33,942 nt of DNA, taken from positions 1 through 33,942 of the forward strand of contig CAJOEG010000017.1 of the NCBI GenBank assembly GCA_905233405.1, given 5' to 3'. The notes beneath the pieces were generated by a model. The model saw only the letters and a list, made by a program, of their open reading frames with translations, did not search any database and had not been told where the DNA came from. Position 1 is the stretch's first letter, and each line of letters begins with the position of its first letter. Below, piece by piece: positions 1 to 28,748 of the stretch. A program made the position numbers and the translations under genes. This stretch comes from an uncultured Bacteroidales bacterium. Its GTDB lineage: Bacteria > Bacteroidota > Bacteroidia > Bacteroidales > ML635J-15.

Positions 1-3000
1 CGTATTATTGGCGAGTAAAGGCAACCAACAGCAATGACAGTGACACATCAAGCTATTCCGAAGTTAGGAATTTTACAACCTGCTCTGCACCAATTTTGAG
101 TTCTCCAAATAATGATATGGTTTATACCTCAATAGTAAGGCCTACAGTTTCATGGAATACAATCACAGGCGTTGGAAGTTTTATACTTGAGTGGGATACA
201 GTATCGTCATTTTCATCGCCGAAGTTCAGTTCATTTACAACATCTTCTACATCTGTCAATATTAATGCATTGCTATACGGCACAAAGTATTATTGGCGAG
301 TAAAGGCAACCAACAGCAACGACAGCGACACTTCCAGCTATTCCGAAGTAAGGAACTTTACAACTTGCTCGGCTCCAATTTTGAGTTCACCAAGTAATGG
401 TATGATTTATACGACTATGGTCAGGCCTTCTGTTTCATGGAATTCAATCACTGGCGCTGGTAGTTATATCCTTGAATGGGATACGGTGTCTTCGTTTTCA
501 TCGCCGTTGTTCCGCACATATACAACATCATCGACATCTATATATATTAATGGATTGCTATACAGCACAAAGTATTATTGGCGCGTTAAGGCAACCAATA
601 CAAACGACAGCGACACATCAAGATATTCTGAGGTGTGGAATTTCACAACAGCAGGAAATGTTACTTTAATTTCTCCAACCAACAATCCAAGTACGACAGG
701 CAGGTTTTATTCACGGCAGTATTTAAAATGGAATACATTACCAGGCTCTTCGGAATACCTAATCCAGCTTGATACAACTTCCGATTTCAGTTCAAGTGTA
801 TTGCGCAATATAAGTGTATCAACATCAAGTACAAATACAGATTCATACTATGAAAAGTGTGTGTACGATTTATATTATGGAACAATGTACTATTGGAGAG
901 TTTGTGCTATAAGTTCTGTTGATACAACCGACTGGTCTGAGACTTGGCAGTTCCATACTATGGACGATGTAGTGCTGACTTTCCCAAGTGATACTAGTGT
1001 AAATGGTACTTATTTTACTCGGCAAGAATTTAAATGGCAGAATTCCCTTGGTTCATCCTTGTACATCTTACAACTCGATACTACACCAAGTTTCAGTTCG
1101 GGACTGCTGCAGACCTATACCGCGACAAACACTAATTCAAACACCGATACATACATATACAAATATATCTCCGATATGCGTTATGGTACAATGTATTATT
1201 GGCGTGTATGTTCGGCAAATGCTGTTGATACATCGGGCTGGTCTGCTACATGGCGATTCCATACTACCGATTGGGTTGCGCTATATTATTTACCGAACGA
1301 CACAAGTTCTACTGTTGGCTATTATACTCGCCAAGAACTGGAATGGAAGAATTCAAAAGGTTCTAATGCATATATTCTTCAGCTAGATACAGTTCCGAGT
1401 TTTGATTCAGGATTGTTGCAGAGCATAGATGTTTCATCATCAACCACCAACACCGATACATACATATACAAGTATGTTTCCGATATGCGTTATGGTACAA
1501 TGTACTATTGGCGAGTTTGTGCTATAAACAATGCTGACACATCGGGCTGGTCTGCAACTTGGCAATTCCATACTGTCGACTGGGTTGTATTGGATTCTCC
1601 ATCAAATAATAGTACAGGTTTGGCAGTATCTTCGCGTACATTGTATTGGAATAACTCCAGAGGCTCTTCATCGTACATAGTTCAGGTTGATACAACAAAC
1701 AGCTTTAATTCGGAACTATTGCGTAATATAAGTGTTTCGTCGACGACGACAAGTACAGAGACGTACAAGAGTACAAGCATAACGAATATGCTCTATGGAA
1801 CAACTTATTATTGGCGAGTTTGTGCTGTAAATGCTGCTGATACATCTGGTTGGTCGAATGTATGGCGTTTCACTACTGTCTACCAGCTTACTACTGCGCC
1901 TACGCTTGTAAGTCCCGCAAACGGCAGCAACGAAATACAGCCATCAGGTGTGGATTTGGTATGGAATCCGTTGGACAATGTTACCGGCTACCGCTATCAG
2001 GTGTCGACCGACAACACTTTTACTACAATATACCGCAGTGGAGCCACCGCCAACACAACGGCAACTTGCTATCTAAATTATGGCACAACTTACTATTGGC
2101 GTGTTCAAGGCTACAATGCAAGCGGAAATTCGGTTTGGTCTCAGGTGTGGAGTTTCGAGACACAAACTTGCGAACTTACTGGCGAAACAACTGTTGAGGC
2201 TTGCGCTTCGTACCTATGGCGCGGTATAACCTACACAGAATCGGGAGACTACAACTTTACCAAGCATCTGTCGAACGGTTGCGATAGCTTACTTACCTTG
2301 CATTTGACAATCAACCAGTCTTCGGAGCGTGAATTTTCGCACACCGCCTGTGGCAGTTACATCTGGAACGGCGTGACCTACGACGAAAGTGGCGACTATG
2401 TACAGAATATTGCTGCATCAAATGGTTGTGACAGCATTGTTACATTGCATCTTACAATAAACCAGCCCGTGGCTGAGCTTGTCGAAGCCGAGGCTTGCAA
2501 TTCATACGAATGGAATGGTACTGCCTATACCGAGAGTGGCAATTATACGCGTACTTTCACCGCAGCAAATGGTTGTGATTCGGTTGTTACCTTGCAGCTG
2601 ACAATAAATGAATCGCCGCGTCGCGAGTTTAGTGCAGTTTCGTGCGGCAGTTATGTATGGAACAATCATACATACAATGAATCAGGAAATTATGTACAGA
2701 CAATTTCTTCCGACAACGGTTGCGACAGCATAGTTACATTGCATCTTACAATAAATCATCCGTTGACACATCATGTCGAAGCCACGGCTTGCGAATCCTA
2801 CGAGTGGAACGGTGAAACATATACGGCAAGTGGCAATTATCAGCAGACTTTCACCGCTGCCAATGGTTGCGATTCTGTTATTACACTGCATTTGACAATA
2901 AATCATTTGACCATAGCAGAAATCACAGTTTCAGCTTGTGAATCCTACGAGTGGAATGGTGAAACTTATACCGAAAGCGGTGATTACGAACGGACTTACA

Positions 3001-3638
3001 CATTGGCTAGTGGTTGCGATTCTGTTGTGACCTTGCATTTGACAATAAATCAGCCTGTTGCTGAGCTTGTCGAAGCCGAGGCATGCAATTTCTATGTATG
3101 GAACGGTTCAACATATACCGAAACTGGTACCTATACAGGATCATTCTCTGCTGCCAATGGTTGCGACAGCGTTGTTACCTTGCACCTTACTATTAATGAA
3201 TCGGTAACATACGAGTTCGACACCTCTGCAAATGAATCCTTCGTATGGAATGGCGAAACATTTACCGAAACAGGCGACTACACGCAGGCATTTACTGCTG
3301 CAAATGGTTGTGATTCAATTGTCACCTTGCATTTGAATGTCATTACAGGAATTTCGGAAGCAGAAATACAGATAAACATTTTCCCGAACCCAGCAAACGA
3401 CATCCTAAATATCACATCATCAGAGCAAATTTCTGAAATTGAGATCGTAAATGCTTTGGGTCAGATTGTAAAGCACGTGGAAGTGAATGCCGACAATGTG
3501 GTTTGCGATATTGAAGATTTGACGAGCGGGGTGTATGTTGTGAGAATCCATAGCCGCTCCCTGCAGCGCACTGAGCCTGTCGAAGCGAGCCTGTCGAAGG
3601 GCACGGCTATCACACAACAGAAATTTGTAAAGGAATAA
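1..3638 (+). CDS. Giant modular secreted protein, 5'-truncated at the window edge: Fn3-like YYWRV modules, eight Cys-containing ~49-aa repeats, C-terminal T9SS (Por) sorting domain
   Basis: The reading frame is open from base 3 (YYWRVKATNSND...), so the TTG at 96 is not the true start. At least 8 modules end in YYWRV(K/C)A...W(S)..W.F(T/H)T. Eight repeats have the form (A/S)C.SY.WNG.TY.ESG.Y...F.AANGCDS.VTLHLTIN. The C-terminus is FPNPANDILNI...GVYVVRIH...QKFVKE, typical of Por_Secre_tail domains. Confidence 0.85.
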   Translation, partial: YYWRVKATNSNDSDTSSYSEVRNFTTCSAPILSSPNNDMVYTSIVRPTVSWNTITGVGSFILEWDTVSSFSSPKFSSFTTSSTSVNINALLYGTKYYWRVKATNSNDSDTSSYSEVRNFTTCSAPILSSPSNGMIYTTMVRPSVSWNSITGAGSYILEWDTVSSFSSPLFRTYTTSSTSIYINGLLYSTKYYWRVKATNTNDSDTSRYSEVWNFTTAGNVTLISPTNNPSTTGRFYSRQYLKWNTLPGSSEYLIQLDTTSDFSSSVLRNISVSTSSTNTDSYYEKCVYDLYYGTMYYWRVCAISSVDTTDWSETWQFHTMDDVVLTFPSDTSVNGTYFTRQEFKWQNSLGSSLYILQLDTTPSFSSGLLQTYTATNTNSNTDTYIYKYISDMRYGTMYYWRVCSANAVDTSGWSATWRFHTTDWVALYYLPNDTSSTVGYYTRQELEWKNSKGSNAYILQLDTVPSFDSGLLQSIDVSSSTTNTDTYIYKYVSDMRYGTMYYWRVCAINNADTSGWSATWQFHTVDWVVLDSPSNNSTGLAVSSRTLYWNNSRGSSSYIVQVDTTNSFNSELLRNISVSSTTTSTETYKSTSITNMLYGTTYYWRVCAVNAADTSGWSNVWRFTTVYQLTTAPTLVSPANGSNEIQPSGVDLVWNPLDNVTGYRYQVSTDNTFTTIYRSGATANTTATCYLNYGTTYYWRVQGYNASGNSVWSQVWSFETQTCELTGETTVEACASYLWRGITYTESGDYNFTKHLSNGCDSLLTLHLTINQSSEREFSHTACGSYIWNGVTYDESGDYVQNIAASNGCDSIVTLHLTINQPVAELVEAEACNSYEWNGTAYTESGNYTRTFTAANGCDSVVTLQLTINESPRREFSAVSCGSYVWNNHTYNESGNYVQTISSDNGCDSIVTLHLTINHPLTHHVEATACESYEWNGETYTASGNYQQTFTAANGCDSVITLHLTINHLTIAEITVSACESYEWNGETYTESGDYERTYTLASGCDSVVTLHLTINQPVAELVEAEACNFYVWNGSTYTETGTYTGSFSAANGCDSVVTLHLTINESVTYEFDTSANESFVWNGETFTETGDYTQAFTAANGCDSIVTLHLNVITGISEAEIQINIFPNPANDILNITSSEQISEIEIVNALGQIVKHVEVNADNVVCDIEDLTSGVYVVRIHSRSLQRTEPVEASLSKGTAITQQKFVKE
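2..660 (+). repeat. 285-bp (95-aa) intragenic tandem repeat, 2.3 copies visible
   Basis: GTATTATTGGCG(A/C)GT(A/T)AAGGCAACC recurs at 2, 287 and 572, an exact 285-bp period, with high nucleotide identity between copies. Confidence 0.9.
2166..3340 (+). repeat. Eight ~147-bp (49-aa) intragenic tandem repeats encoding the Cys-containing module
   Basis: The ...NGCDS(V/I)VTLHLTIN... unit recurs 8 times. The linker INQPVAELVEAEACN occurs twice, at about nt 2461 and 3050. Confidence 0.85.
3550..3610 (+). repeat. GC-rich REP/MITE-like short element inserted in frame inside the T9SS sorting domain
   Basis: A 7-bp inverted repeat, ATAGCCG (3550-3556) and CGGCTAT (3604-3610), flanks a tandem GAGCCTGTCGAAG (3573-3585 and 3587-3599). 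The segment is visibly GC-rich against its surroundings. It encodes SRSLQRTEPVEASLSKGTA, and the opposite strand reads ALRQARFDRLSALQ. Confidence 0.55.
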
Positions 3639-8523: not shown

Positions 8524-9018
8524 CTATTCTTCTTTAGAGCCTTCTTTTTGCGGTTTGCACAAATCGATTATAATCTTGTTTATCTCGTATGTAGGGTCGT
8601 AATCGGGTCCGGCCATATATCCGCTAGACCAGAAAAAGTTTTTCCCAAATTTTACATCCAACGACCAGCTGTCACCATCGAAAACGTCGGGGTTGGAGTA
8701 GGAATGTTCCCAATCCTGAACATTGGCCTTGGCAAGCATATCACCAATCTCTTCCAATTTTTCACGAGGCACATTGCTGACCGAATCAACCTTGCACTCC
8801 TCGTTAGGTAACAGAAAATTGCAATCGCGCACTATAGCAGACACGACGCTATCTTTGCACATTATTTCAAATTCCTTTGACATGCCGGAATATCCATTAT
8901 GTACTTTATAATGATAGTAAACAAGATCGCTACCTTTCAATTTGTATCTATCACTGTTAAAACAACAGCAGCAACAAAATATCAGTGCTGTTAAACTGAT
9001 AAAAATATTTCTTATCAT
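8524..9018 (-). CDS. Hypothetical exported protein or lipoprotein (164 aa) with a penta-cysteine run at the signal-peptide end
   Basis: N-terminus MIRNIFISLTALIFCCCCCFNSD. ATG start. No family recognised. Confidence 0.7.
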   Translation of the reverse strand: MIRNIFISLTALIFCCCCCFNSDRYKLKGSDLVYYHYKVHNGYSGMSKEFEIMCKDSVVSAIVRDCNFLLPNEECKVDSVSNVPREKLEEIGDMLAKANVQDWEHSYSNPDVFDGDSWSLDVKFGKNFFWSSGYMAGPDYDPTYEINKIIIDLCKPQKEGSKEE

Positions 9019-9094: not shown

Positions 9095-9706
9095 TTACCT
9101 TACTACATACTCAAACCTGTCGATTTGTGTAACGCCCATTTGCTGCAGCAGCCTAACGGAGCGGTCGCAGTCGTCGGTGGCATTGAAACCAGGGATTAGC
9201 GGTACGCGAACCATGATGCGTTCCGGACCTTTGGCAGAAATGAGCCAACGGAGATTTTGAAGGCTCTGCCGGTTGCTGCGTGTTGTGTATGCCTTGTAGA
9301 TGGACGGATTGGTATCCTTTATGTCGACAATAAAGTAGTCAATGATTTCGGAAGCCGCTTCGACCGCCGAACGCGGCACGGCAAGCGAAGTTTCGGCTGT
9401 AATTTTCCAGGCATCACCACAAAGTTTGCGAAATTCACGGATAAAATCAGTCCTAAGCAATGGTTCACCGCCGCCAAAGCAGATACCTCCACCAGTGTAA
9501 AGGAAATAAATGTTGTCGATGCGTACGTGGTCGAAAAGTGTCTGGGGTGTATAATGCGGAAGATTGTCCGTCTTCCCGAAACAGGATGGATTCAGGCAGT
9601 AACGGCAATGTAGCGGACATCCATGAAATGCCGCCAAAGTTGTAACTCCAGCACCGTCTATATTAATGCGATGCCTCGAAACTCCGATGAATGGCACTGC
9701 TTCCAA
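9095..9706 (-). CDS. Short radical SAM enzyme, glycyl-radical-activase-like (PflA/NrdG-type fold)
   Basis: 203 aa with IDGAGVTTLAAFHGCPLHCRYCLNP (CxxxCxxC cluster motif) and GGGEPLL (SAM-binding motif). There is no in-frame ATG, so the start is TTG at 9706 (or GTG at 9697), 3 nt after the TAG of the upstream small ORF. Confidence 0.85.
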   Translation of the reverse strand: MEAVPFIGVSRHRINIDGAGVTTLAAFHGCPLHCRYCLNPSCFGKTDNLPHYTPQTLFDHVRIDNIYFLYTGGGICFGGGEPLLRTDFIREFRKLCGDAWKITAETSLAVPRSAVEAASEIIDYFIVDIKDTNPSIYKAYTTRSNRQSLQNLRWLISAKGPERIMVRVPLIPGFNATDDCDRSVRLLQQMGVTQIDRFEYVVR

Positions 9707-9709
9707 AGA

Positions 9710-9862
9710 CTATTTCTTATTTTCGTCGGGATTTTCTGTTGGACTATTATATTCGGGAACCTTGCCCCTAAGGGGTATGTCCATATCGCGAGGTTCGATT
9801 ATAGGGTCAATTTCTGTTTTGGCAGAATCGATTTCTGGCACTTTTACAGGAACAATGCCCAT
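9710..9862 (-). CDS. Unlisted 50-aa Pro/Glu-rich ORF, or frame-shifted C-terminal tail of the upstream Cys-rich lipoprotein
   Basis: My translation is MGIVPVKVPEIDSAKTEIDPIIEPRDMDIPLRGKVPEYNSPTENPDENKK. The ATG lies 7 nt after the TGA of 9870..10211. It shares VPE and P(V/L)RGK motifs with that protein's tail. Confidence 0.4.
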   Translation of the reverse strand: MGIVPVKVPEIDSAKTEIDPIIEPRDMDIPLRGKVPEYNSPTENPDENKK

Positions 9863-9869
9863 AAGAGGT

Positions 9870-10211
9870 TCATTCTGGCACAGTGTCTATAGAGGTCTGG
9901 TGGGTTGTGTCGGGATCAACCATTTTGCCTCTAACTGGCACATCGCCCACAAGTTGATGACCTCCGCTATTACAAGCCGCTACGCTAAGCGTAATTCCCG
10001 CGATAGTTGCCACCTTGCCTAGAATGTTCATCTTGCCCTTGCGCGAAAGTTCCTGCTCGATGTATTTCACTTCGGCTTCGCAATGCGGACAGGTGCCGTT
10101 GCATTCGCCCTCGAAAGTACATTCTTCCTGCTCGAGCGGAATATTATTTTCGTCCGCAATGTTCTTGCGAATCTCTTTCAAGTATTTGCAGATATTTTTA
10201 CCGTTCTTCAT
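9870..10211 (-). CDS. Cys-rich domain protein fused to a lipoprotein-type signal peptide (radical-SAM-associated putative lipoprotein-like), paralog A
   Basis: 113 aa with the C31-x5-C37-x3-C41-x2-C44 motif (ECTFEGECNGTCPHCEAE). This is followed by KGKMNILGKVATIAGITLSVAAC|NSGG, which is a charged n-region, a hydrophobic core and a lipobox. Confidence 0.75.
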   Translation of the reverse strand: MKNGKNICKYLKEIRKNIADENNIPLEQEECTFEGECNGTCPHCEAEVKYIEQELSRKGKMNILGKVATIAGITLSVAACNSGGHQLVGDVPVRGKMVDPDTTHQTSIDTVPE

Positions 10212-10224
10212 GTGTTTTAGGTTT

Positions 10225-10512
10225 TTAAAAATATGATGCTAGCACATCGCCCGTAAGTTCTTCGTATTCGTCACATTTTTCCCATGCAAGAAAATCAGAT
10301 TCTCTTTCTTTGTAAACATTTAGTTTCTCTATTTTGCCTCGTTTTATAAGTTCTTCTTCAAGATATTTTACCTCTGCATCGCAATGCGGACAAGTACCGT
10401 TGCATTCCCCCTCGAAAGTACATTCTTCCTGCTGAAGCGGAATATTATTTTCGTCCGCAATGTTCTTGCGAACTTCTTTTAGATACTTGCAGATATTTTT
10501 ACCGTTGTTCAT
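10225..10512 (-). CDS. Cys-rich domain protein, soluble paralog B
   Basis: 95 aa. The first ~57 aa are nearly identical to paralog A. The C-terminus is acidic and unrelated (KERESDFLAWEKCDEYEELTGDVLASYF), with no hydrophobic segment. Confidence 0.75.
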   Translation of the reverse strand: MNNGKNICKYLKEVRKNIADENNIPLQQEECTFEGECNGTCPHCDAEVKYLEEELIKRGKIEKLNVYKERESDFLAWEKCDEYEELTGDVLASYF

Positions 10513-10546: not shown

Positions 10547-10577
10547 CAAAAATATGCATTTTCATAAAAACAGCAAA
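10547..10577 (-). promoter_or_regulatory. Bacteroidota sigma-A-type promoter for the Cys-rich/radical-SAM cluster
   Basis: On the minus strand: TTTG (10574-10577), a 19-nt spacer, then TATTTTTG (10547-10554). This lies about 35 nt upstream of the ATG at 10512. Confidence 0.45.
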
Positions 10578-10607
10578 AAAGAGCCTGCGGGGAACAGACT
10601 CTTTTTT
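10575..10607 (-). terminator. Terminator-like hairpin closing the upstream YtrA/ABC/GIN operon (symmetrical A/T flanks)
   Basis: AAAAAAGAGCCTG-CGGGGAA-CAGACTCTTTTTT, with one mismatch in the stem and T runs on both strands. Confidence 0.5.
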
Positions 10608-10630
10608 GAAGTAAGTAAATTTATGTTATC

Positions 10631-10745
10631 GATGAGGTTGACGAAATTTGGGGTAGTTTGAAGTTGTTTGATATTGTTTGACATTGTTTGAGGTTGTTTA
10701 AAATGGTTTGAACTGTTTTGAGATTGTTTCAAATAGATTGAACAG
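10631..10745. repeat. Exactly 10-bp-phased tandem array of the motif nnnTTGTTTGA (about 9-11 units)
   Basis: Consecutive 10-nt blocks from 10631 to 10740 end in TTG, TTTG, TTTA or TTTC, and each is followed by A: ...gggtagtttg aagttgtttg atattgtttg acattgtttg aggttgttta aaatggtttg aactgttttg agattgtttc aaatagattg. Confidence 0.85.
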
Positions 10746-27320: not shown

Positions 27321-28748
27321 CTACATCTTCAGTCTCTTTTCAATCTCGTCAAGGTCGTGCTTAAAGTTCTTGTCAGTCTCGATGAGATTGTTTACGGTCT
27401 TGCAAGCGTGGAGTACAGTGGCGTGGTCCTTGTTGCCTATTGCATTGCCTATTACAGCAAGCGAACACTTTGTCATATTCTTTGCAAAGTACATTGCAAT
27501 CTGGCGGGCCTGAACGATTTCGCGTTTGCGTGTCTTGCTGCTGAGTACATCCACCGACATCGAGAAATAGTTGCAAACAACCTTCTGTATGTAGTCGATT
27601 GATATTTCGCGCTGTGTGTTCTTTACTAACTTGTCAATCATACCCTTGGCAAGTTCGAGGGTGATTTCCTTCTTGTTGAGGGTTGCCTGTGCAAGCAATG
27701 AAATGAGAGTGCCTTCAAGTTCGCGTACATTGTTTGTAACGTGCGATGCGATGTATTCGAGGATTTCTTCCTTAATTTCGATTCCGTCCTTGTAGGTCTT
27801 TCTCTTCAGTATCTTGATTCTAGTCTCGAAGTCCGGTTCCTGAAGGTCGGCTGCAAGTCCCCATTTGAATCTCGACAGCAAGCGTTCTTCCATTCCGTTC
27901 AAATCTACTGGTGCCTTATCCGACGTAAGAATGAGTTGCTTCTGATGTTGATGCAAATAGTTGAAAATCTGGAAGAAAACTTTCTGAGTACCTTCCTTGT
28001 CTGCGAAATACTGTACATCATCGAGGATAAGCACATCTATCATCTGGTAGAAATGGATGAAGTCGGTCTGGTTGTTGTCGCGGGTAGCCTGCATATACTG
28101 AGTCAGGAACTTGTTGGCATCGACATAAAGCACAACCTTGTCGGGGAAGTTTTTCTTCACCTCAAGTCCTATTGCGTTGGCAAGGTGAGTTTTACCGAGT
28201 CCCGAGCCGCCATAGATGAAAAGCGGGTTGAACGAAGTACCAGCAGGATTTCCTGCCACAGCAAAACCAGCGGCACGGGCGAGACGGTTGCATTCGCCTT
28301 CAACAAAGTTGTCGAATGTGTATTCCGGATTCAGATGCGGGTCTATCTGTATGGGTGTGTATCCAGGATAAGCATACGGATTTGGCGATTCGCCTTCTCC
28401 GAGCCTCGGTCTCTTAGGTATATTGGGGACATTTTTAGGAGTATCGTTTGACGGCATCTTTACAGTTACCGACTTCCCGATATTCTGGTCGCTACTTACC
28501 ACAACCCTGTAGTCCAACTTGGCATTCGGTCCGATAACCCTGTGCAACGTCATTGCCATCAGTTCAATGTAATGCTCTTCGAGGTATTCATAAAAGAATG
28601 TACTTGGCACCTGTATAGTCAACTGGTTGTCCTTGAGTTCGACTGGAACTATCGGAGCAAACCACGTATTGAAAGCCGCCTTTTGCAGATTCTCCTGAAT
28701 TATTTCCAAGCATTTCGCCCAAACCTCTTCGCAATTTTTTGTTGTCAT
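27321..28748 (-). CDS. dnaA: Chromosomal replication initiator protein DnaA
   Basis: 475 aa with Walker A GGSGLGKTHL, Walker B LILDDVQYF, sensor region SDKAP, and domain IV REIVQARQIAMYF...IGNKDHATVLHACK. Confidence 0.97.
   Translation of the reverse strand: MTTKNCEEVWAKCLEIIQENLQKAAFNTWFAPIVPVELKDNQLTIQVPSTFFYEYLEEHYIELMAMTLHRVIGPNAKLDYRVVVSSDQNIGKSVTVKMPSNDTPKNVPNIPKRPRLGEGESPNPYAYPGYTPIQIDPHLNPEYTFDNFVEGECNRLARAAGFAVAGNPAGTSFNPLFIYGGSGLGKTHLANAIGLEVKKNFPDKVVLYVDANKFLTQYMQATRDNNQTDFIHFYQMIDVLILDDVQYFADKEGTQKVFFQIFNYLHQHQKQLILTSDKAPVDLNGMEERLLSRFKWGLAADLQEPDFETRIKILKRKTYKDGIEIKEEILEYIASHVTNNVRELEGTLISLLAQATLNKKEITLELAKGMIDKLVKNTQREISIDYIQKVVCNYFSMSVDVLSSKTRKREIVQARQIAMYFAKNMTKCSLAVIGNAIGNKDHATVLHACKTVNNLIETDKNFKHDLDEIEKRLKM

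Follow-up and report, generated by a model that had tools for sequence, protein, structure and literature searches.

Signal peptides are normally viewed as short, discarded N-terminal tags. The Sec signals of bacterial lipoproteins end in a lipobox for signal peptidase II (SPII). In Bacteroidetes, an AxA motif with Gln at position +1 is the signature of signal peptidase I (SPI) substrates, the so-called 'Q-rule' (PMC5837995). Longer leaders have been described elsewhere: the extended signal peptide region (ESPR) of type V secreted proteins is an N-terminally extended signal peptide (PMC8151025), and some long eukaryotic and retroviral signal peptides have post-targeting functions (PMC2447879, PMC2649029). 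Here we describe a family of bacterial proteins in which a Sec-type signal stands behind a conserved, cysteine-rich domain of about 58 amino acids (aa), which we refer to as the Cys5 module in the following. The starting point is a stretch of 33,942 nucleotides (nt) from an uncultured Bacteroidales bacterium of gut or rumen (NCBI GenBank assembly GCA_905233405.1, contig CAJOEG010000017.1, positions 1 to 33,942 of the forward strand), referred to as the window. On its minus strand, two tandem paralogs, B (10225–10512) and A (9870–10211), both start with the module, and A continues with a lipoprotein-type signal. Directly downstream lies a gene for a PflA-like radical S-adenosylmethionine (radical-SAM) protein, which had been overlooked in an earlier note made from the DNA letters alone and which we regard as the strongest functional lead. 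We hold with moderate confidence that module and signal make up a two-part export leader, whose cytoplasmic, presumably metal-binding module would partner with the radical-SAM enzyme and be removed together with the signal peptide.

As judged from the protein sequences, the signal-peptide part appears to be standard, and its place behind a conserved domain to be what sets it apart. The signals of the family share with Sec/SPII and with Bacteroidetes Sec/SPI 'Q-rule' signals (PMC5837995) a basic n-region, an Ala/Gly/Leu-rich h-region of 13–16 residues and, at its end, either a lipobox of the form [LVMAF][ATSG][AGS]C or AxA with Gln at +1. Unlike standard Sec signals, they begin at about residue 60, behind the folded-looking module, and both their n-region (R-x-x-L-G-K) and an AG within their h-region are nearly invariant across the family, which is unusual. 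With the ESPR and the long eukaryotic and viral signals they have in common an extra conserved N-terminal segment before a normal signal, and a cleaved leader that may live on. The ESPR differs in being proteobacterial, Cys-free and about 25 aa long, and its family (PF13018) was not found in a Pfam scan of A and B; the long eukaryotic and viral signals show no sequence relationship to the family, and none of them is Cys-rich or linked to a radical-SAM gene. A further likeness is offered by TIGR04134, the 'radical SAM-associated putative lipoprotein', a hypothetical equivalog in NCBIfam that likewise pairs a Bacteroidetes lipoprotein with a radical-SAM gene. A match to this family, at E = 4e-6, is seen in one relative that is encoded next to the radical-SAM gene (locus L078, 5001–6017). 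However, this match reaches 26.8 bits against a cut-off of 39.8 and covers only a CarboxypepD_reg-like passenger (residues 203–274), not the module; paralogs A and B do not match TIGR04134. In literature searches on the architecture, on TIGR04134 and on extended signal peptides in Bacteroidetes, we met no description of the module.

As encoded in the window, paralog A has 113 aa plus a stop codon. Its module (residues 1–58; 10038–10211) is followed by ...RKGK-M61-NILGKVATIAGITLSVAA-C80-NSGG, where residues 59–80 (9972–10037) read as a predicted signal peptide with the basic n-region RKGKMNILGK, the 13-residue h-region VATIAGITLSVAA and the lipobox VAAC with Cys80, leaving a putative mature peptide of 33 residues. 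Residues 66–80 (KVATIAGITLSVAAC) match a lipoprotein pattern, and a version of A initiated at Met61 matches the anchored, G+LPP-type pattern. With the full-length protein, no match is found when the pattern is anchored at residue 1: Cys80, which is at the family's median position, lies outside the roughly first 35 residues in which the usual criterion expects the lipobox Cys. On direct reading, the charges flanking the hydrophobic segment predict an N-in/C-out orientation. The lipoprotein-type signal behind a domain of about 58 aa, which the earlier note had recognized, is therefore borne out by the pattern match, by the lipobox Cys that is kept in divergent homologs (VAAC, MAAC, LASC, LSGC, LTAC, FTSC) and by a sister class with AxA↓Q, where the arrow marks the predicted cleavage site.

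The family is large. A profile search with the module against 1.84 billion representatives matched 2,855 clusters (at 50% identity) at E ≤ 1e-3 and 2,405 at E ≤ 1e-10; a second search yielded 481 clusters at 90% identity, and a scan of species-representative genomes more than 561 module copies. Among the best 150 profile matches, which range from 72 to 821 aa in length, the alignment mostly begins within the first few residues, and cluster members are named 'hypothetical protein' or 'TonB family protein' only. Our counts of loci rest on the 80 loci kept, all of them from Bacteroidales metagenome-assembled genomes (MAGs) of rumen or gut. There are often several loci per genome, and up to five module genes stand together in a tandem array.

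In about 95% of the members examined, a short hydrophobic segment follows the module. All but about a dozen of 122 proteins from two sequence searches carry a lipobox-like tetrapeptide about 33 residues past the CPxC motif; the exceptions are four proteins without the hydrophobic segment, one of the AxA↓Q type and a few with a Cys in an off-pattern context. The exhaustive profile search added the decisive observation: of the 143 diverse representatives that carry the Cys motif, about two thirds show a lipobox, and about one third have no Cys at this position, their hydrophobic stretch ending in ...AQAQ↓A, ...AAAQ↓V, ...SAQ↓D or ...FAQ↓Q. Likewise, 107 proteins from species-representative genomes comprise 50 with a lipobox, 44 of the AxA↓Q type and 13 with SPI-like sites, and stricter patterns assigned 237 of 372 pooled family sequences to the lipobox class and 83 to the AxA↓Q class. 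Between the Lys or Arg and the Cys, the uncharged stretch measures 16 residues at the median, which is signal-peptide length. Two cleavage motifs at one position after a short uncharged stretch would be hard to account for in a plain membrane anchor; the sequences argue for a genuine, cleavable Sec signal and against both a segment that merely anchors the protein and a wrongly called start. The earlier note had itself named two ways in which its reading could fail, namely a plain transmembrane segment without a conserved Cys and homologs missing the N-terminal 60 aa. Neither is the case, since the Cys is conserved or replaced by AxA↓Q, and the N-terminal part is present and conserved in every homolog.

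Two variations on this assignment were considered. A twin-arginine translocation (Tat) signal, suggested by the likeness of RRxLGK to RRxFLK, was rejected, as just 138 of 349 members (40%) have consecutive Arg residues; set against the consensus S/T-R-R-x-F-L-K, A has RKGKMNILGK and many members have R-x-R. The second is an annotation artefact, in which the true start would be an internal Met (Met61 in A), the upstream 60 or so codons would be untranslated or form a separate small gene, and the product would be an ordinary lipoprotein. The Met at position 61 of A, the match of the Met61 version to the standard lipoprotein pattern and the 97 of 349 members with a Met within 4 residues upstream of LGK speak in its favor, while the remaining 72% of members have no Met there, so that an internal start, a question raised in the earlier note, was rejected as a general explanation. 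Moreover, thousands of clusters conserve the module at the protein level, and it always runs directly and in frame into the signal peptide; the first 58 codons of A and B show 13 synonymous and 9 non-synonymous codon differences, which fits two translated, selected copies. We consider the artefact very improbable, and alternative initiation at Met61 still conceivable for this particular gene.

The module itself contains five Cys residues that are invariant or nearly invariant in every alignment we made (C8, C31, C37, C41 and C44), with the spacing C-x22-C-x5-C-x3-C-x2-C; one of them had been missed when it was first described as a four-Cys domain. In all, the invariant positions are K5, C8, L11, K12, R15, A19, I24, L26, C31, G35, C37, G39, T40, C41, P42, C44 and E47. 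In the AlphaFold2 model of paralog A, computed from an alignment of 21 sequences, the module forms a helix (residues 3–21), a loop (22–41) and a second helix (42–57), with a predicted local distance difference test (pLDDT) score of about 71–82 over residues 11–60. The model of paralog B, based on 124 sequences, has the same layout, with helices at residues 5–21 and 42–57 and a Cys-rich loop at 22–41 (pLDDT about 63–77). The first helix is basic and the second acidic. Searches with the module gave no match at E ≤ 0.1 in Pfam and NCBIfam beyond weak, knuckle-level ones (YvyF, rubrerythrin-like, YacG, NapF) and none in PADLOC; sequence profiles of the PDB returned LysW only (E = 6.8), and a Foldseek comparison of the AlphaFold2 model with the PDB found no match (best E = 8). 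The GTCPxC knuckle is weakly similar to rubredoxin and zinc-ribbon sites (NF033497, E = 0.004; LysW, E = 6.8). From these sequence and model features, a helical hairpin closed by a metal site, either Zn or Fe-S, is a reasonable reading of the module.

The two copies in the window have parted ways behind their modules. Nucleotides 10078–10211 of A and 10379–10512 of B differ at 12 of 134 positions (91.0% identity), just as had been estimated by eye (about 90%, about 12 mismatches), and the peptide sequences quoted at the time were correct as well. The complete divergence described for the part that follows holds for the nucleotides, whose ungapped identity over the next 120 nt is at the chance level of 29%, but not for the proteins, as B aligns with A over its full length, beyond the shared N-terminus. 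Paralog B (95 aa; module in residues 1–58, 10339–10512) retains a Cys aligned with the lipobox Cys of A (WEKC versus VAAC) and an ELTGDV motif, with charged residues in place of the intervening hydrophobic core. Its tail is hydrophilic and acidic, as noted before; it has no signal peptide, and a lipoprotein pattern scan found no match. Its length of 95 aa is kept in the relatives P0023 and P0024 and in the loci L007–L009. By its sequence, paralog B would be a free-standing cytoplasmic copy of the Cys5 module without an export signal. The proteins P0027 and P0109 have no signal peptide either and end in a basic amphipathic tail; such signal-less versions are consistent with a function on the cytoplasmic side.

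Paralog A, by contrast with its homologs of 166–181 aa, is truncated in the window. The near-identical loci L007–L009 encode, in identical order, B with 95 aa, an intact A with 171 aa and the radical-SAM protein, and an alignment of the DNA places a 14-nt deletion (CGCCCGAAATACAC in L007–L009) at the junction 9871/9872 of the window, where it creates a premature TGA stop (9870–9872, minus strand). The last 50 codons of A persist out of frame as an open reading frame at 9710–9862 (minus strand) that encodes the Pro/Glu-rich tail MGIVPVKVPEIDSAKTEIDPIIEPRDMDIPLRGKVPEYNSPTENPDENKK and matches the C-termini of intact homologs. Because of the deletion and the stop, the Pro/Glu-rich tail that had been ascribed to A is not in frame here; the frameshift had gone unseen. 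It may be that A has recently decayed into a pseudogene, that this is a shortened variant of the gene, or that the assembly is in error.

The radical-SAM gene (9095–9706, minus strand, TTG start) encodes a protein of 203 aa with the Pfam domains Radical_SAM and Fer4_12. It starts 3 nt beyond the end of the original reading frame of A, which in turn starts 13 nt past the end of B. Upstream of B, a strong terminator-like hairpin with a 15-bp stem (10574–10608, minus strand) divides the GntR and DUF2807 genes from the three genes described here, which, by their order, look like one transcription unit. The best NCBIfam matches of the 203-aa protein are activases of glycyl-radical enzymes, all under their curated cut-offs (123.4 versus 174.35 bits for TIGR02494; 91.9 versus 231.75 bits for TIGR02493), and its closest solved structure is Escherichia coli PflA (PDB 3C8F; E = 1e-15, residues 15–191). 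It shares size and motifs with these activases: CX3CX2C, with C30, C34 and C37 invariant, a DGxGV loop and a GGGEP motif; there is no ferredoxin insert. Apart from scoring below every curated cut-off, it differs from them in three extra conserved Cys residues of its subfamily, C42 (89%), C76 (99%, within GGGxCFGGGEP) and C96 (99%), which may form an auxiliary cluster or a substrate-binding site. It also differs in its company, as the recurrent neighbor of this subfamily is the Cys5-module family and not a glycyl-radical enzyme. A glycyl-radical enzyme as its substrate was rejected: the window contains no gene for a Gly_radical or PFL-like protein, and the 25 Pfam families met most often directly beside related loci include no glycyl-radical enzyme.

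The link between module and enzyme recurs outside the window. When the immediate neighbors of module genes were scanned with Pfam, Radical_SAM with Fer4_12 was the sole recurrent family beyond lineage synteny (7 downstream, 9 upstream). Orthologs of the radical-SAM protein (phmmer E-values of 1e-64 to 1e-122) are found within 5 kb in 31 of the 80 loci, always on the same strand and mostly abutting the module gene or module array. The linkage is kept even in locus L011, whose module protein is just 45% identical to A and where the genes overlap. In the reverse direction, starting from the radical-SAM protein, a CarboxypepD_reg gene that bears the module lies 9 nt upstream in two of four cases. 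Where a genome has several module loci, the radical-SAM gene is usually seen at only one of them. The possibility that modules adjacent to a radical-SAM gene make up a subfamily of their own was rejected, for they form no separate clade; together, these two results suggest one enzyme with many clients. Several loci, among them L030, L071, L078 and L088/L090, hold tandem arrays of 2–5 module genes with differing passengers, usually bordered by a radical-SAM gene. In several loci, small toxin-antitoxin-like, PD-(D/E)XK or DUF86-like genes lie between the radical-SAM gene and the array. A search for a third conserved partner, by clustering all neighbors of the 80 loci, returned only lineage synteny (EF-Ts, ribosomal proteins) and insertions of this kind.

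A radical-SAM enzyme next to proteins with a conserved N-terminal domain calls to mind the ribosomally synthesized and post-translationally modified peptides (RiPPs). The module would then act as a folded leader, bringing in the enzyme so that the passenger is modified before it is exported, and signal peptidase, in place of a dedicated protease, would remove this leader. A possible site of modification is the motif L-[EQ]-G-[DE]-[VP], which is about 5-fold enriched within 25 residues after the lipidated Cys and present in 173 of 257 SPII-type members. In the window, related copies are found in A (LVGDV, residues 87–91) and B (LTGDV, residues 85–89), and its retention in the signal-less paralog B suggests that it is read in the cytoplasm. 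There is also a precedent, in that anaerobic sulfatase-maturating enzymes carry out radical-SAM modification of proteins in the cytoplasm prior to Sec export. Yet SPI-type members mostly lack the motif (present in 15 of 103) and are equally often adjacent to a radical-SAM gene, for instance in L025, L030, L044, L066 and L075, and the enrichment may be inflated by the redundancy of the sequence sample. Furthermore, the candidate precursors are proteins of 72–821 aa with folded passenger domains, and the enzyme consists of Radical_SAM and Fer4_12 only, with neither a RiPP recognition element (RRE) nor a SPASM domain; in a comparison with maturases, its extra Cys residues (C42, C76, C96) possibly leave room for an auxiliary cluster. 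On balance, we find a RiPP-like pathway quite unlikely.

The presumed metal site invites another explanation, which assigns no role to the radical-SAM enzyme. If the module folded only when loaded with Zn or Fe-S, and if its fold state gated engagement by Sec or the signal recognition particle (SRP), the export of TonB-like and receptor-like proteins would be coupled to the iron, Fe-S or oxygen status of the cytoplasm. The five invariant Cys with their C-x3-C-x2-C run and GTCPxC knuckle, which weakly resembles rubredoxin and zinc-ribbon sites, the passengers from the sphere of TonB-dependent uptake and the hosts, strict anaerobes of rumen and gut, all agree with a gate of this kind. It leaves unexplained, however, the recurrent, same-strand and often abutting radical-SAM gene as well as signal-less copies such as paralog B, and iron-regulatory genes are not recurrent in the neighborhoods scanned. 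We therefore regard metal- or redox-gated export in this form as unlikely.

What follows the signal peptide varies. Among 107 relatives, 40 have a CarboxypepD_reg passenger and 32 a TonB_C passenger, both of them periplasmic or envelope domains; other passengers show nothing recognizable, and some members have short Pro/Glu-rich tails. Passengers of identical type but with ordinary signal peptides occur in the very loci that hold module genes, so that the module seems to be an optional add-on to normal secreted proteins. The similarity to the TonB family is partial: in the 32 relatives, TonB_C follows a Pro-rich linker, some members are annotated as 'TonB family protein', and the Pro/Glu-rich tail of intact A resembles a TonB linker. 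Unlike TonB proteins, A and B lack TonB_C (PF03544), and the hydrophobic segment of the family appears to carry a cleavage site and not to act as an anchor of the TonB type; ExbB and ExbD genes are not recurrent near module loci in the neighbor Pfam scans.

A Cys-rich domain in the cytoplasm, joined through a single hydrophobic segment to a domain in the periplasm, is also the topology of a membrane-tethered regulator, and a likeness to zinc-binding anti-sigma factors had indeed been suggested in the earlier note. The anti-sigma factor RsiV likewise has a signal-peptidase site behind its hydrophobic segment, and its site-1 cleavage is carried out by signal peptidase (PMC4183432, PMC6066255). 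By analogy, the module would bind a cytoplasmic transcription factor and the hydrophobic segment would serve as an anchor; signal peptidase would cut only once the TonB_C or CarboxypepD_reg domain had sensed a cue in the periplasm, and an intramembrane protease would then free the module. TonB_C passengers could conceivably sense the TonB boxes of loaded transporters. The evidence from the loci points elsewhere: a gene for an extracytoplasmic function (ECF) sigma factor lies within 5 kb in 2 of the 80 loci and is adjacent in neither, none was found beside A and B in the window, and Pfam and NCBIfam gave no match to zf-HC2 or another anti-sigma domain, nor is there an HxxxCxxC motif. In addition, two thirds of the members carry lipoboxes, and lipoprotein processing is normally constitutive; many members, paralog A included, have no sensory passenger domain at all. 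An RsiV-type regulator thus seems distinctly unlikely, and the suggested likeness to anti-sigma factors finds no support.

We therefore return to the two-part leader. Its first part would be the helical hairpin of about 58 aa on the cytoplasmic side, with five Cys on the loop and helix ends and a presumed metal (Zn or Fe-S) site, and its second part an ordinary cleavable Sec signal peptide with the conserved n-region (R-x-x-L-G-K...A-G). In paralog A, the passenger would be exported and lipidated at Cys80, with the signal peptidase II LspA cutting just before this residue, and the module would be left on the cytoplasmic side together with the short h-region. Since the h-region, at 13–16 residues, is too short for a stable anchor, the module would probably be released or degraded. 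In the cytoplasm, at the membrane, the module would most likely act as a docking site or substrate of the co-encoded PflA-like enzyme, and typically one radical-SAM gene per genome would serve several module-bearing proteins. In paralog B, the module would be permanently cytoplasmic. Of all this, the sequences directly establish the architecture and its conservation, the two cleavage-site classes and the linkage of the genes, whereas cleavage as such, metal binding and an effect of the radical-SAM enzyme on the module are inferred.

Several points weigh against this proposal. Cleavage is deduced from motifs, and confidence in the AlphaFold2 models is moderate, with block means of 63–82 in the module core and about 60 in the first ten residues. 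Every member found belongs to uncultured Bacteroidales MAGs. The link between module and radical-SAM gene, though frequent in the DNA examined, is not obligatory: at 49 of the 80 module loci there is no radical-SAM gene within 5 kb, and at two of the four radical-SAM loci no module gene within 4 kb. Pfam and NCBIfam find neither RRE nor SPASM in the protein encoded at 9095–9706, which has Radical_SAM and Fer4_12 only. Finally, no target residue can be named, as the invariant glycines G4, G35 and G39 lie outside any glycyl-radical motif of the RVxG[YF] type. More tentatively, and with rather less confidence than in the two-part leader as such, we suggest that the Cys5 module might be a previously undescribed cytoplasmic 'pre-signal' domain, that is, a metal- or Fe-S-binding hairpin that is fused to Sec signal peptides, has a dedicated PflA-like radical-SAM enzyme to modify it, activate it or dock on it, and is split off from the exported protein by signal peptidase I or II.

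The rest of the window is ordinary chromosome, with thrS, infC and rplT to one side and dnaA farther on; the position of dnaA (27324–28748, minus strand) probably places the window near the chromosomal replication origin. Upstream of paralog B, between the DUF2807 gene and the terminator, an intergenic array at 10647–10743 consists of about 8.7 tandem copies of the 10-bp unit GTTTGAAATT, which can alternatively be read as 3 copies of 30 bp. A small hairpin, CGCAATGTTCTTGCG, recurs in identical form on the antisense (plus) strand at 10155–10169 and 10456–10470, once per module copy, and most likely just reflects the duplication of the coding sequence. A protein of 164 aa encoded downstream of the radical-SAM gene (8524–9018, minus strand) carries five consecutive Cys residues where its hydrophobic N-terminal segment ends (LIFCCCCCFNSD); no family matches it, and it is kept solely in the closest relatives (L007–L009, with gene calls of 112–164 aa), and the conservation of a downstream 355-aa protein is limited to them as well. 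At 96–3638 (plus strand), a protein of 1,180 aa combines a purple-acid-phosphatase N-terminal domain with Fn3, Ig-like and type IX secretion C-terminal sorting domains.

A conserved, apparently folded five-Cys domain precedes both lipoprotein and ordinary signals across thousands of envelope proteins from Bacteroidales that are abundant in gut and rumen. The proteins of this family will probably be misclassified by standard predictors and by annotation rules in which the lipobox is expected no farther than about 35 residues from the start. The repeated linkage to a distinct radical-SAM gene, where no glycyl-radical enzyme is close by, suggests that PflA-like enzymes have a new substrate or partner here, and anaerobic radical chemistry or metal status could possibly be coupled with protein export or TonB-dependent uptake. 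If the module is indeed a pre-signal domain, each export event would yield a small, modified protein of the cytoplasm, left behind or released, or else the radical-SAM step would license export; either way, radical-SAM chemistry would be tied to export and to TonB-related envelope proteins in anaerobic Bacteroidales.

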